From an uncultured virus (IMG/VR IMGVR_UViG_3300022187_000001) (taxonomy: Duplodnaviria > Heunggongvirae > Uroviricota > Caudoviricetes > Crassvirales), in the IMG/VR virus record IMGVR_UViG_3300022187_000001: a stretch of DNA of 64,000 nucleotides; one strand, written 5' to 3'. The translations under genes were made by a program, and so were the position numbers. Under the pieces are notes generated by a model that saw nothing but the letters and a program-made list of their open reading frames with translations, made no database searches and was not told the DNA's origin. Each line of letters starts with the position of its first letter. Position 1 is the first letter of the stretch. This document shows positions 1 through 18,795 of this stretch, piece after piece.

Positions 1-1141
1 TGTAGTCAGACCCCATGATATAGGTCCCGCTATACACATTCATTATCTCCATTTTGTGTGGAGTCCTAGAAAACACACTGTTTGTCTTTTCTTTATAGCT
101 ACTTCCTTTGTCGTAGAAGTTTGTGTTACCGAATCGGTTTCTTTTTTCTTCGTAGTAGTTGGTGTCCGTAGACGTAAACTCAAACTCTAGTATCTCTACC
201 ATATACTCGTCATACCCCATGTTGTATCTCTCTGAGAGCCTATCATAGGTGGAGTCGTATGGTCCTCCGCTTGTATTGTTCCTTGTTGCCAGGGTCTGTA
301 TCTTCTTGTATTCATCTTCAGAAAACTGATCTCCTGCAAGTCTTTTTAGTTCTGCAATACTTATTCTTTTTACATGACCTGCATATATAAGATCTGAAAA
401 AGAAGGGTCTTCCGTATAGCTATGTATAAAGTTGGCTGGGTCTACGTACTCTACTGAAATGCCGTATGTAGGGTCGTTGCTTCTTTTTGTCACAGCCATT
501 CCAAGAGCGACAAGATCATTAACACACCTTCTATACGTAGAGTCGTTAAAATCACTCCACTCCAACGTCATGTTTGTTCCAATCTGAGCCGCTACTTCTG
601 CGTCCGTCTTGATGTTAGTGTCAAATAGTATTTCTGCCTCCTCTAGGGTTTCTGGAACTTTATCTGGGTCCATATCTATGACCATTCCAGTCTGCTCCTT
701 AAGCTTTTTTAACTGCTCTCTAGCTTGAACTTGAAGGTTAATTTTCTTCTTTTTTCTATTCTTTTCAGAAGAAGAAAGAGGGTCTACCGCCTCAAGGTTT
801 GGATATGGGTCTCTAGATAAGATTTTATTGACAACAATCCTAGCAAACTTCGATAAAATAGGGACAGGGGTAAAATCAAGATTAATAAGGCTGCCGTCAC
901 CGTTGTTAGGATCAAGAGATGTAAGAATTTGCTTGTAAATGGTTGTGTCTTGTGTTCCATTAGCATAATCTCTATTTCTGTCAAAAACCTTTCTTCTCTT
1001 TCTAAATAAAGAATTATAGTCGCTCCCATTGCCCCACTGAGATTGTATAGCCTTAGCATATTTAAGGCCGTACTCCTTCATCTCTTTTTTTTCTTTTGGG
1101 AGAAGTGGATCAGGAAAATTAGAAGAATATTTATTTGCCAT
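1..1141 (-). CDS. Portal protein (N-terminal part; runs off the left edge)
   Basis: Hand translation from ATG at 1141 (MANKYSSNFPDPLLPKEKK...LDFTPVPILSKFARIVVNKI...VEYVDPANFIHSYTEDP) stays open to the window edge. It lies directly downstream of TerL and resembles Bacteroidota phage portals. Not in the ORF track because it is truncated. Confidence 0.85.
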   Translation of the reverse strand, partial: MANKYSSNFPDPLLPKEKKEMKEYGLKYAKAIQSQWGNGSDYNSLFRKRRKVFDRNRDYANGTQDTTIYKQILTSLDPNNGDGSLINLDFTPVPILSKFARIVVNKILSRDPYPNLEAVDPLSSSEKNRKKKKINLQVQAREQLKKLKEQTGMVIDMDPDKVPETLEEAEILFDTNIKTDAEVAAQIGTNMTLEWSDFNDSTYRRCVNDLVALGMAVTKRSNDPTYGISVEYVDPANFIHSYTEDPSFSDLIYAGHVKRISIAELKRLAGDQFSEDEYKKIQTLATRNNTSGGPYDSTYDRLSERYNMGYDEYMVEILEFEFTSTDTNYYEEKRNRFGNTNFYDKGSSYKEKTNSVFSRTPHKMEIMNVYSGTYIMGSDY

Positions 1142-3267: not shown

Positions 3268-4003
3268 CGTACTTACCTTGAATCAACTCTTGCAAGCGAA
3301 CGTATTTTTTAATTAACTCTGATCTTTTTAGATACCTAGGGTAAATAGTTTTACTAATATAAGATTCGTAGCTATGTATATTAAGATCGTCTTTTATGTC
3401 AAGACAATCTTCTGGATCTTCTGATATCAAATCGATTATATCCCACCCCCACTTATTGGTCATCTCCTCTAAAATTTTTCCGTCAAAATCAAATGTTTGA
3501 TCCTTGTTGTAGACCTTAAATAAGTCTACTGAATTTTCTAGAGAATACGTAAGGAAGAATTGTCCAGAACTAACCAGATATTTTCCTCTTGTATTGAAAA
3601 CGCAAGTCTCATCTTTGTTGGGGTCAGTACTCATTACAACAAACTTATTTGACCCAAACGTAGCTGTCTTTTTTCCAGACAACTTCTCTTTACACTTGTC
3701 CCAATATTCCTGGCTATGAAGGTTGTTGCTGCCCATCCAACAGATATAGTCTTTTTGAGCGTGAATAGAAGTCAACCATGAAAACTGAAACTTATAAGAA
3801 AGAGGATCGTTAGGGTACATGTAGTGCTTTATTCCTCTGTCAGAACAAAACTCCTCTTGTCTTTTGTCGTCACCAATTACAATTCCAGTAGCTTCAAATC
3901 CATCTTTTTTAAAGTCTTCTATGACATCGCTCATGTGCGATATTGACATTCTTGTCAAAGAAAACCTTTTGTGATAGACCATAAAAAAACAAACACTCTT
4001 CAT
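3260..4003 (-). CDS. Glycosyltransferase-like (GT-A fold) protein
   Basis: GT2-like pattern (IVIGDD, NDPLSYK, DYICWMGSNNL); the usual acidic GSDD position reads GSNN. Confidence 0.5.
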   Translation of the reverse strand: MKSVCFFMVYHKRFSLTRMSISHMSDVIEDFKKDGFEATGIVIGDDKRQEEFCSDRGIKHYMYPNDPLSYKFQFSWLTSIHAQKDYICWMGSNNLHSQEYWDKCKEKLSGKKTATFGSNKFVVMSTDPNKDETCVFNTRGKYLVSSGQFFLTYSLENSVDLFKVYNKDQTFDFDGKILEEMTNKWGWDIIDLISEDPEDCLDIKDDLNIHSYESYISKTIYPRYLKRSELIKKYVRLQELIQGKYDE

Positions 4004-5271
4004 CGGATCAAAGAGACATGACCGTTTATAACATAGGACTCTCCATAGCCCTCACACTGAAGTCTATATACATAAACGTCAGAAGGTAAATAATATTCAT
4101 CCCCTCCGATCCATATGTCATCAGGATGAAAGCCCTCCCAAACAACCTCACCACTTCTAGAAAAAACTTTTAATATCCAAGATATCCAACAGCTGTCATC
4201 AGTATATGCACCCCAGTAGTCATTGACACCATCATTATCTGGTGTAAAAGAATTAGGTATGTATATATCACATCCTTCGTATGGGCTTATACAAGGGCTT
4301 CCTGTTTCGCAATCAACTTCTACCATATCGTACTCGTAAGAGTATTCAATTAAAGTGTCTGTTGTGTATACGTAGGTTGTGTCGTAAAAATACCAGTTTA
4401 TAGGGACAGTAATAGTATCAGGGGGTAGTTCAACGTAGTTGATGATAGTGTCGTATAGGATCAAAGGCTGGTACACGGTGTCTGGGGGGAGCTCTACATA
4501 AACTACCGTTGTATCATATTCTATAAGCGTTACTGTATCAGGCGGGAGCTCTACATAAATAGTGTCAATCACTACCTCTGGTATGGGTTCGCCGCAATCG
4601 CCAACCACAACCCAGTTGTCCTGAAAGCTATTGTCTTCGTACAGCCCAGTCCCCCAAGGGGTTCCATCTCCATTAACTCCAACCTCGGCCCAGCCCCCGT
4701 CAGAAGCGTACATAGTCTGCCCGTAACTGATCTGCCATATTACAGCCTGGATGCTATAACCCTCTGTATACCAGTATGTTATGACGTTCTCTAGGTTGCA
4801 GTACATCTGCCCCGCGAAAGGACCGTTTACGCAATCCGACTGGTATGAGTTGAATATAGGGAATGTAACGGTGTCCCCAGAATAGTACGGGGGTACAAGC
4901 GACTCATCATATAGGTTCGTCCAGTTAGTTGGCGACTCTGTAGTAGTAGCGCTGTAGATCCATCCAGGATGGTTACTGGTAGCGCTGAGAGGGAAGTCAA
5001 AAGACGGGAAGTCCCACCCTGTATTCATCGCATTGCAGTCCTCGTCTATTGCCTGAAATCCAAACTGCAGTTCGGAAACGCCGTCGGGCGCACCTGCACC
5101 ACCGCAATTTTCTGTGTTAAGGAATGCTACAGTGACAGATCCTTCTACAGGATCGAAATCCAACAACTCAAGATCGCATTGAGCGTGCATAGGAAATCCT
5201 TTCAGGATAACGCTTAGTATGAAAAGCAAGATCATGATAAAGAGCTTGCTTAAAATATAGTCTCTAGTCAT
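4000..5271 (-). CDS. Exported protein with a type-B T9SS C-terminal sorting domain (gliding-motility-associated CTD)
   Basis: N-terminal signal peptide ending MHA-Q; C-terminus IYIPNSFTPDNDGVNDYW...LKVFSRSGEVVW...W.G...DVYVYRL...GHVSLIR; internal YVELPPDT repeats. Confidence 0.85.
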   Translation of the reverse strand: MTRDYILSKLFIMILLFILSVILKGFPMHAQCDLELLDFDPVEGSVTVAFLNTENCGGAGAPDGVSELQFGFQAIDEDCNAMNTGWDFPSFDFPLSATSNHPGWIYSATTTESPTNWTNLYDESLVPPYYSGDTVTFPIFNSYQSDCVNGPFAGQMYCNLENVITYWYTEGYSIQAVIWQISYGQTMYASDGGWAEVGVNGDGTPWGTGLYEDNSFQDNWVVVGDCGEPIPEVVIDTIYVELPPDTVTLIEYDTTVVYVELPPDTVYQPLILYDTIINYVELPPDTITVPINWYFYDTTYVYTTDTLIEYSYEYDMVEVDCETGSPCISPYEGCDIYIPNSFTPDNDGVNDYWGAYTDDSCWISWILKVFSRSGEVVWEGFHPDDIWIGGDEYYLPSDVYVYRLQCEGYGESYVINGHVSLIR

Positions 5272-5399
5272 CTTCCCTGACCCCTATATGGTTTCTTGTA
5301 GTTCTTAGATCTTTTTTTATTTGATGTCTTAGTCTTACTATGAACACCAGGCCTTGAAACCTTATTTTTCTTTTCGTAAGTAGATTCTACTTTTGCCAT
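5268..5399 (-). CDS. Small basic protein, 43 aa (ends KPYRGQGR)
   Basis: Hand translation MAKVESTYEKKNKVSRPGVHSKTKTSNKKRSKNYKKPYRGQGR; ATGA overlap with the next gene; below the ORF-track cutoff. Confidence 0.75.
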   Translation of the reverse strand: MAKVESTYEKKNKVSRPGVHSKTKTSNKKRSKNYKKPYRGQGR

Positions 5400-5412
5400 T
5401 TTATTTAATTTG

Positions 5413-5489
5413 TCGGCGAGGCGGGGATTGAACCCGCATGCAACCGATTACTCTTTCTACAAGGTATAAGCTTGAGGAGATACTCGCCG
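5413..5489 (-). tRNA. Non-canonical tRNA-like gene, anticodon UAU (Ile), no canonical D-arm
   Basis: Acceptor CGGCGAG/CTCGCCG+A; T-arm GCGGG-TTCAATC-CCCGC; anticodon loop CT-TAT-AC closed by CAAG/CTTG; extra arm GTAA-TCGG-TTGC. Confidence 0.7.
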
Positions 5490-5494
5490 AGTGT

Positions 5495-5734
5495 TTATTT
5501 TCTCTTTGAGCCCTTTATTCGACTTTTTTCTGCTATGCCTCTATTTTTAGATGCAGGCATAATTACTCTTGCTCCATTAGAGGCGTGATGAATGTCCTTG
5601 CCGTCTCCCTTTTTTACTTTTCCTTCTTTTTCAGCGGACCTACGGTCTCTATTCCTCTTAGCGCGGAGTTTTTTCTGCTCATCAGAAGACTGGAACTTAT
5701 CGTATTCTTTTCTATAATTTCTTTTTACTCTCAT
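5495..5734 (-). CDS. Small basic HNH-like protein
   Basis: KKGDGKDIHH...SKNRG pattern typical of minimal phage HNH proteins near packaging genes. Confidence 0.55.
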   Translation of the reverse strand: MRVKRNYRKEYDKFQSSDEQKKLRAKRNRDRRSAEKEGKVKKGDGKDIHHASNGARVIMPASKNRGIAEKSRIKGSKRK

Positions 5735-18545: not shown

Positions 18546-18621
18546 GCGCCTGTAGCTCAGTGGTTAGAGCATCCGACTCATAATCGGCAGGTCGTAGGTT
18601 CAAGTCCTACCAGGCGCACCA
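18546..18621 (+). tRNA. tRNA with CAU anticodon, probably tRNA-Ile2 (lysidine type)
   Basis: Canonical 76-nt cloverleaf with CCA; loop CT-CAT-AA; C4-G69 and C5-G68 pairs as in TilS substrates. Confidence 0.9.
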
Positions 18622-18699: not shown

Positions 18700-18772
18700 G
18701 CCCACGTAGCTCAGGGGATAGAGCAACTGCCTTCTAAGCAGTCGGTCGCAGGTTCGATTCCTGCCGTGGGTA
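18700..18772 (+). tRNA. tRNA-Arg(UCU)
   Basis: Canonical cloverleaf; ACTGC-CTTCTAA-GCAGT; CCA not encoded. Confidence 0.93.
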
Positions 18773-18795
18773 CAAACATTCAAACACTCACAAAC

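Follow-up and report, generated by a model that had tools for sequence, protein, structure and literature searches.

A largely unannotated family of block-swapped isoleucine and arginine tRNA genes, borne mainly by phages

Introduction

Permuted transfer RNA (tRNA) genes of the red alga Cyanidioschyzon carry the 3′ half of the tRNA before the 5′ half and give a canonical product by way of a circular intermediate. The D-armless tRNA-Ser types of animal mitochondria have lost the D arm between the acceptor and anticodon stems; a short connector and a three-way junction remain, and the contacts at the elbow are relaxed (PMC7609411). Allo-tRNAs, or (8/4) tRNAs, are natural non-standard forms known from metagenomes and phage tRNA clusters, among which the anticodon UAU is common; they have 8/4 or 9/3 stems and a long variable arm, and they keep the cloverleaf order (PMC5389517). 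In Escherichia coli, the synthetase, EF-Tu, and the ribosome use the engineered "mini HisT", a man-made tRNA without a canonical D arm that needed a PNPase mutation for stability (PMC11551756). All known bacterial tRNAs are canonical cloverleaves, as stated in the same 2024 paper (PMC11551756). Here, we describe a 77-nucleotide (nt) element in IMG/VR record IMGVR_UViG_3300022187_000001, an uncultured virus of the Crassvirales. By the window, we mean the whole 64-kb stretch of DNA that was analyzed. It belongs to a large family of block-swapped Ile and Arg tRNAs, most of which are without annotation.

Like the Cyanidioschyzon genes, the element has its parts in a non-canonical order. Unlike them, it has canonical ends, with the acceptor strands at the two ends of the gene, and two internal blocks are swapped; it is therefore not a circularly permuted gene. 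It shares with the mitochondrial tRNA-Ser types the absence of a D arm between the acceptor and anticodon stems and the three-way junction, but it retains a D stem and loop in a new place, with conserved equivalents of G18-G19, A14, and R15:Y48, and it occurs in a phage and bacterial setting. The presence of a covarying helix between positions 11-13 and 37-39 and of a D-loop-like segment separates it from the D-armless class. Allo-tRNAs resemble it as natural departures from the standard form, but the element keeps the 7/5 stems and changes the order of parts. Unlike mini HisT, it is not man-made. We found no description of a block-swapped architecture in the full-text literature searched, subscription-only papers lying outside that search. 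A 2020 review on non-canonical tRNAs makes no mention of phages (PMC7609411), and a survey of structured RNAs in IMG/VR treats tRNA-like candidates in general terms only.

Results

Sequence and Parts of the Element

The element lies on the minus strand at positions 5413-5489 of the window. The sequence reads as given in a preliminary description of this DNA, whose limits (5411-5490) were one or two bases too wide at each end. RNA positions (p) are numbered below as 5490 minus the window coordinate. The 5′ strand of the 7-bp acceptor stem (p1-7; 5483..5489) pairs with p70-76 (5414-5420), which are followed by the discriminator A at 5413 (3′ strand and discriminator together, 5413..5420); CCA is not encoded. 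U8 and A9 stand as in a canonical tRNA, and a linker, U10, would be the unpaired equivalent of residue 22 (5480..5482); the three are invariant in our alignments, partly by construction, because these columns were set by the search patterns. Nothing like a D arm can be read after A9. As the preliminary description had noted, only about 4 nt occupy its place: the Rfam tRNA model aligns 4 nt there against 15 expected, and 18 nt ahead of the T arm appear as an insertion in that alignment.

The next segment, CUC (p11-13; 5477..5479), would play the role of the 3′ strand of the canonical D stem (23-25). It leads to the anticodon hairpin (5460..5474), with a 4-bp stem (p16-19/p27-30) and the 7-nt loop CUUAUAC, which holds U33, the anticodon UAU (5466-5468), and A37. 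U31 and an AGAAA bulge (p31-36; 5454..5459) stand at the start of the variable loop; in p numbering, G33 and A34-A36 are invariant and p32 is A or U, a pattern again partly set by the search patterns. Then comes GAGU (p37-40; 5450..5453), which pairs with p11-13 and would be equivalent to the 5′ strand of the canonical D stem (10-13). The D-loop-like segment AAUCGGUU (p41-48; 5442..5449) can be read as A14 R15 Y16 N17 G18 G19 U20 N21. In the following GCAU (p49-52; 5438..5441), R49 is the partner of U40, the next two residues (C50 and A51) serve as linkers, and U52, directly before the T stem, would be the equivalent of Y48. The T arm (5421..5437) has a 5-bp stem and the loop UUCAAUC, which fits the consensus of the tRNA model. 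Our reading thus agrees with the preliminary description on the 7-bp acceptor stem, U8-A9, the T arm, the anticodon loop, the position of the GG-bearing segment 3′ of the anticodon hairpin, and the CUC/GAG pairing that encloses this hairpin. Two other proposals had to be abandoned. The anticodon stem is not of 6-7 bp, as it consists of four pairs (16-19/27-30) and a U.U apposition. The small hairpin GUAA/UCGG/UUGC is unsupported, as an invariant A41 faces U, C, or G at position 48, and U40:R49 alone is retained as a pair.

The element had been expected to give a low or atypical score with tRNA finders, and so it does. ARAGORN in standard, intron, low-threshold, and mitochondrial modes makes no call at 5413-5489 and reports just two tRNAs in the window, with anticodons CAU (18546-18621) and UCU (Arg, 18700-18773). 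A run of Rfam at gathering thresholds on the whole window does not report the site 5413-5489; on a small region, the tRNA model (RF00005) scores it at 29.0 bits (E 2e-4), which exactly reaches the cut-off of 29. Conversely, a covariance model of the family, R1, scores the window copy at 103 bits, and a structure-only descriptor run on both strands of the 64 kb finds a single site, 5413-5489. The folding energy (z −2.06; 6 of 200 shuffled sequences fold equally well) is weak support taken alone. A blastn search with 3.2 kb around the site against the INPHARED phages gave no match.

Relatives and Their Anticodons

Relatives were sought by pattern scans, covariance models, and the structure-only descriptor, for a total of about 180 distinct sequences. 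DNA was also fetched around 80 relatives of the terminase gene. An nhmmer search located the element in nine more loci, in each case upstream of the terminase gene and with compensatory changes visible. At least 118 viral contigs, 4 to 367 kb in length, contain its exact 24-nt core, and 130 core-bearing copies reduce to 59 distinct sequences, each 77 nt long. Searches with R1 recovered a diverged 80-nt copy in L065, a locus from an IMG/VR relative of the window phage, with UAU kept and CGA/UCG as the enclosing helix, and a 75-bit copy with the loop CUGAUAA, hence the anticodon GAU, in the cultured crAss-like phage Kehishuvirus "tikkala". When the anticodon arm was left free, a pattern scan returned 99 viral stretches carrying GAU or CAU. 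A scan for members whose middle anticodon base is not A returned 42 stretches with Arg anticodons only (UCU 19, CCU 16, ACG 5, and UCG 2), and a scan for A at position 35 together with a base other than U at 36 returned none. The members fitting the scaffold patterns amount to 162 distinct sequences in 281 copies of 76-78 nt. The descriptor search, which covered the DNA around Ile and Arg members and three phage regions, gave 178 distinct matches; 177 have an Ile or Arg anticodon, and the sole other match (L356) is doubtful.

The scaffold is not specific to UAU, as GAU, CAU, and six Arg anticodons are found on it too. Within the searches made, Ile (UAU, GAU, CAU) and Arg were the only anticodon classes met. 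We had considered avoidance of TilS by a UAU anticodon as the reason for the structure and rejected it: GAU, CAU, and Arg anticodons are carried as well, and sister phages have a canonical tRNA with UAU.

Covariation

The structure of the element is under selection. Among the first 59 sequences, 98.5% of the proposed pairs form, with double changes in 7/7 pairs of the acceptor stem and 4/5 pairs of the T stem. Pair 12:38 is UA in 35 and CG in 24, pair 42:52 is AU in 52 and GC in 7, and neither is unpaired in any sequence. The anticodon arm is invariant in this set because the search pattern fixed it. A broader alignment, A2, comprises 145 distinct 77-nt members; 97.6% of its cells pair, a figure attained by 0 of 500 shuffles, against 68.1% after shuffling and 41-46% when the partners are slid. 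In A2, double compensatory changes affect all seven pairs of the acceptor stem, all four of the anticodon stem, all five of the T stem, and the pairs 12:38 and 42:52. Pair 12:38 is UA in 87 sequences, CG in 55, and UG in 3, and is never unpaired; pair 40:49 is UA in 116, UG in 23, and otherwise in 6; pair 42:52 is AU in 107, GC in 27, UG in 1, and otherwise in 10. Covarying 42:52 matches R15:Y48, the Levitt pair.

Left to itself, RNAalifold finds the same secondary structure, with compensatory changes in 17 of 19 pairs. In an all-against-all scan of mutual information, the helix pairs come out on top, followed by 42-52 and next by 23-47. Those members that were recovered by model or descriptor have enclosing helices of ACC/GGU, CCG/CGG, CGA/UCG, CGC/GCG, CGU/ACG, and other sequences, and therefore 11:39, 12:38, and 13:37 all covary. 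The preliminary description had made its proposal dependent on homologs with the UAU loop and compensatory stems; such relatives are abundant, and covariation is found in every helix. This rules out a decayed pseudo-tRNA.

A Block-Swapped Core

The core of the element is block-swapped, the canonical residues 10-22 (the 5′ strand of the D stem and the D loop) being placed 3′ of the anticodon arm. As p37-48 reads as a D-stem strand followed by a D loop, the order along the chain is 8-9-[23..45]-[10..22]-[46/47-48]-49, an exchange of two adjacent blocks. A41 is then equivalent to A14, R42 to R15, and G45-G46 to G18-G19, and p11-13 runs directly into the anticodon stem, like the canonical 23-25 and 26. 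The tertiary set U8-A14, R15:Y48, and G18-G19 is present in the displaced block, with U8, A41, and G46 invariant and G45 nearly so. When p37-48 is moved in silico to just after p9, ARAGORN calls all 145 sequences of A2 with the expected anticodon, against none of the 145 in native order and 20, 94, and 25 of 145 after three control moves. An internally permuted tRNA with a displaced GG loop serving as D loop had been the central proposal of the preliminary description. It is strengthened by the covariation, the pair 42:52, the block move, and the coupling, described below, between the anticodon and the base after GG.

Set against RF00005, the element has an acceptor stem with discriminator, a T stem with a UUCRANY loop, and an anticodon loop with U33 and a purine at 37, and it lacks a D arm between residue 9 and the anticodon arm. 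A class II tRNA with a long variable arm, as the Rfam alignment would have it, was rejected: there is no 5′ D arm, the hairpin of that alignment does not covary, and G39 pairs with C11. For the steric side of the swap, we take yeast tRNA-Phe as a guide: the joins 9-23, 45-10, and 22-46 of the element presumably link residues that touch, in the yeast structure, in three classical base triples of the core. New joins between residues already in touch would explain why such a swap is sterically allowed.

Identity Elements and Genomic Slot

GG is followed by U in 116 of the 117 Ile members, whose anticodons are UAU or GAU, and by A in 35 of the 37 Arg members, the other two being unparsed. The coupling between anticodon base 35 and the base after GG ("position 20") is the strongest signal outside the helices after 42:52. 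The discriminator is A in all 117 Ile members, and G (19), A (15), or U (3) in the Arg members; an encoded CCA end is seen for 20 of the 37 Arg members and 14 of the 117 Ile members. Bacterial Arg identity has been assigned to A20, C35, U/G36, and A/G73, and bacterial Ile identity includes A73, U20, and the anticodon (PMC9976931). The identity bases of the members match the bacterial Ile and Arg sets, A20 being a determinant for arginyl-tRNA synthetase (ArgRS). The window copy reads as a tRNA-Ile(UAU) in this respect, with UAU, A73, and U after GG.

The slot upstream of the terminase gene, which adjoins tRNA-Arg(UCU), is occupied in the 80 loci by the element (11), by a canonical tRNA-Ile(UAU) (11), or by a CAU tRNA (7), and never by two of them together. 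The canonical tRNA-Ile(UAU) of sister phages (for example, L011 1463-1537, L023, L035, and L077) resembles the element in its slot, the loop CUUAUAC, the discriminator A, and a similar T arm. Unlike the element, it is callable by ARAGORN: an ordinary D arm separates A9 from residue 26, the variable loop is of 5 nt, and the anticodon stem is of 5 bp. The UAU anticodon noted earlier therefore stands, but it is not what makes the element unusual, as these canonical tRNAs share both loop and slot. A canonical tRNA lies within 400 nt of the element in 13 of 20 sampled loci.

Distribution and Annotation

The family is mainly phage borne and sporadic in cells. Its members come from marine, gut crAss-like, jumbo, and Streptomyces phages, with scattered copies in bacterial assemblies. 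Whole records of jumbo phages, 367-459 kb long, have one or two strong copies each. Standard tools pass them over: ARAGORN calls none of the 162 members, its mitochondrial mode yielding just 5 truncated miscalls, and 3 of 22 elements from 20 loci reach the Rfam gathering threshold. Of the 81 INPHARED records with a match to the GAU form, 78 are Streptomyces phages of about 130 kb, and there is no annotated feature among the matches listed. The Streptomyces phage Mildred21 (NC_042008.1) has four copies (73703-73779, 86379-86453, 91367-91442, and 94857-94933). Its Ile GAU copy, adjoining a tRNA nucleotidyltransferase gene, and its Arg ACG copy are unannotated; its Arg UCG copy is annotated as tRNA-Phe(gaa), although the loop reads UCG; and its diverged Arg UCU copy is annotated as "tRNA-OTHER". 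In Kehishuvirus "tikkala" (OQ198717.1), the element (95577-95653) fills a gap of 90 nt that is left unannotated between the tRNA-Trp and tRNA-Met genes of an array. This copy has two U.U mismatches in its acceptor stem, and a canonical UAU tRNA-Ile is present in the same tRNA array.

A general pattern run on 185,579 species-representative genomes gave 31 matches, of which 30 are real, mostly on contigs of metagenome-assembled genomes (MAGs) and with Ile or Arg anticodons only. Some of these copies have cellular genes as neighbors, among them one for a glycosyl hydrolase (Prevotellaceae MAG) and one for a TRCF-domain protein (Saprospiraceae MAG), and another copy lies by a phage-type ligase gene. 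Among the Saprospiraceae, 4 of the 101 genomes searched have a match. With such numbers (30 real matches in 185,579 genomes and 4 in 101 Saprospiraceae), a vertically inherited cellular gene is unsupported. Three Saprospiraceae MAGs (L394, L395, and L397) and one Prevotellaceae MAG (G007) carry two rewired Ile tRNAs, one GAU and one UAU, which are separated by about 300-400 nt in the Saprospiraceae. Of the two, one is of a sub-type in which the helix is ACC/GGU, the anticodon stem is of 5 bp, and the bulge differs.

Gene Surroundings

In the window, the element lies among late genes on the same strand, which encode a portal, a large terminase, a GroES-like protein, and an endolysin. The upstream open reading frame (ORF) (5495..5734, minus strand; 79 amino acids, aa), which belongs to PHROG families of unknown function, has its stop 5 nt before the 5′ end of the tRNA. 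Downstream, a small basic ORF of 43 aa (5268..5399, minus strand) starts 13 nt past the discriminator. Such a very basic 43-aa ORF is also kept 3′ of the tRNA gene(s) in L065 (2662-2793). A 423-aa protein encoded just upstream of the terminase genes (4000-5271, minus strand) has a C-terminal CHU_C type IX secretion sorting domain, a signal specific to Bacteroidota and unusual for a phage late operon, which points to a Bacteroidota host. In three other loci (L070, L046, and L007), TATATTTG or TATTTG motifs lie within about 10 nt 3′ of the element and are followed by ATG; they presumably resemble the −7 promoter element of Bacteroidota.

Nuclease genes adjoin some copies. In L065 (2005-2549), a 24-nt start of the element, cut in the anticodon loop, is followed by an Endonuclease VII ORF whose 3′ end enters the diverged full copy; this arrangement resembles that of a free-standing homing endonuclease accompanied by a cleavage-resistant allele. 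Copies are also abutted by HNH or Endonuclease VII genes in the Streptomyces phages Mildred21, TomSawyer, JimJam, and Enygma.

The two canonical tRNAs of the window are both encoded on the plus strand and were detected by ARAGORN and Rfam: a CAU tRNA (18546..18621), given as Met by ARAGORN and possibly tRNA-Ile2, and tRNA-Arg(UCU) (18700..18773). The former has C4-G69 and C5-G68, which we take to be TilS determinants, and an anticodon stem-loop resembling that of tRNA-Ile2. It may be a second AUA decoder of this phage, dependent on TilS, the rewired one being independent of it. In the 60 longest ORFs of the window, ATA is used more than any other Ile codon (468 of 1142, 41%), AGA (39%) and AGG (27%) together make up 66% of Arg codons, and the G+C content is 43.9%. 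The three tRNA-type genes of this phage match exactly the ATA and AGA/AGG codons.

Discussion

The element is probably a functional tRNA-Ile(UAU) with a rewired core, most likely an AUA decoder. From the structure, selection, distribution, and identity coupling seen in the family, its expression, processing, charging, and decoding may be predicted as follows. RNase P and 3′ processing would release the RNA from the late transcript, and CCA would be added to the processed RNA. Its D stem would form from distant strands (p11-13 with p37-39, and U40:R49) and stack on the anticodon stem, and the displaced D loop would supply the elbow with A14, R15 (paired to the Y that directly precedes the T stem), and G18-G19. 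Host isoleucyl-tRNA synthetase (IleRS) would charge the RNA through the anticodon, A73, and the U20-like base, and the charged tRNA would read AUA, the commonest Ile codon of the phage. A D-armless tRNA is accepted by the HisRS, EF-Tu, and ribosome of E. coli without adaptation (PMC11551756). Among the functional options raised in the preliminary description, which included a decoy and a tRNA resistant to anticodon nucleases, the evidence appears to favor decoding.

Several observations weigh against this interpretation. Position 38 is C in the UAU type, and A38 is listed as an Ile determinant of E. coli (PMC9976931); the canonical phage tRNA-Ile(UAU) likewise has C38. The mutual exclusivity in the terminase slot rests on loci of ±5 kb, some of them truncated, and 35 of the 80 are without any tRNA. 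In some phages, canonical isoacceptors coexist with the element, as does tRNA-Ile(gat) in Mildred21 and, if it is tRNA-Ile2, the CAU tRNA of the window; the lack of a decoder is therefore not enough to account for the rewired form. Beyond four standard pairs, the anticodon stem has just a U.U, the invariance of columns 8-15 and 31-41 is due in part to the patterns that fixed them, and the three-dimensional fold is a prediction from sequence.

The coexisting isoacceptors leave room for a non-decoding tRNA mimic, which could be a decoy or sponge for an anticodon nuclease, a modifying enzyme, or a tRNA-binding defense, or else a regulator that binds IleRS or ArgRS. Where canonical isoacceptors are present, as in some phages, decoding capacity alone explains too little, and the restriction to two amino-acid classes could mirror two targeted tRNA species. 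Such a mimic nevertheless seems rather unlikely to us. Paired acceptor stems, the A73 of the Ile members, the CCA encoded by 20 of 37 Arg members, and the A20/U20 switch are needs of aminoacylation that would be superfluous in a decoy for an anticodon-loop nuclease. Moreover, sister phages have a canonical tRNA-Ile(UAU) in the slot of the element, the two being mutually exclusive there, and AUA is heavily used by the phage of the window. The tight placement of the gene, 5 nt past a stop and 13 nt ahead of a start in a same-strand operon, would suit a processing signal through which RNase P punctuates the late mRNA. Its neighborhood in other loci would suit the footprint or cleavage-resistant allele of a homing endonuclease: in L065, an Endonuclease VII gene (PF02945, E 9e-24) stands after nt 24 of a window-type copy and before the diverged full copy, and HNH genes adjoin copies in Mildred21 and other Streptomyces phages. 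We judge both to be improbable. Punctuation needs the acceptor and T arms only and leaves the Ile and Arg loops, the D-loop-like segment, and the position-20 coupling unexplained, and most copies lie in tRNA arrays, not inside mRNAs. Linkage to homing endonucleases fails as a general explanation, as an HNH domain is found in just 4 of 71 distinct upstream ORFs, one of them below the Pfam cut-off.

The success of the block move, which gives a cloverleaf call in 145 of 145 sequences, is also what one would expect if the RNA were cut and rejoined into a canonical cloverleaf, as the products of circularly permuted tRNA genes are. There is very little chance of this, in our opinion. The acceptor strands are already at the ends, so that an internal segment would have to be excised and re-inserted; we know of no mechanism for such a step, nor of any route that returns a block-swapped RNA to canonical order. 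Bulge-helix-bulge or intron-like motifs are absent, and selection acts on features that exist in the permuted chain only, namely the pair U40:R49 and Y52 beside the T stem. The lack of an ARAGORN call and the borderline Rfam score are in keeping with a decayed pseudo-tRNA or a chance resemblance, to which we accord next to no probability, in view of 162 scaffold-pattern members and 178 descriptor matches in unrelated phages with compensation in all helices.

A functional rewired tRNA would still leave room for a broader proposal, which we put forward as speculative and rather doubtful. The family might be the first natural non-cloverleaf class of tRNA in bacterial translation, spread between lineages, charged by IleRS or ArgRS and active on the ribosome, and kept as a counter-defense because enzymes that read the D arm and anticodon stem do not recognize it. 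The enzymes evaded could be host anticodon nucleases, tRNA-depleting defenses, or the nuclease by which the phage itself shuts off host tRNAs, and Ile and Arg decoding would thereby stay running during infection.

Standard annotation misses or mislabels these genes, and the Ile and Arg tRNA repertoires of phages are therefore under-counted. As cultured pairs exist (Streptomyces cluster BE phages, and Kehishuvirus on Bacteroides cellulosilyticus), the question is directly testable. The scaffold might also be a possible chassis for engineered tRNAs. The family would serve as a natural experiment on which features of a tRNA are read by synthetases, RNase P, the CCA-adding enzyme, EF-Tu, modification enzymes, and tRNA-targeting nucleases. 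It would amount to a naturally occurring departure, among phages of bacteria, from the canonical cloverleaf, one that keeps the parts of the L shape and joins them in another order, and it would show that the tRNA core tolerates rewiring.

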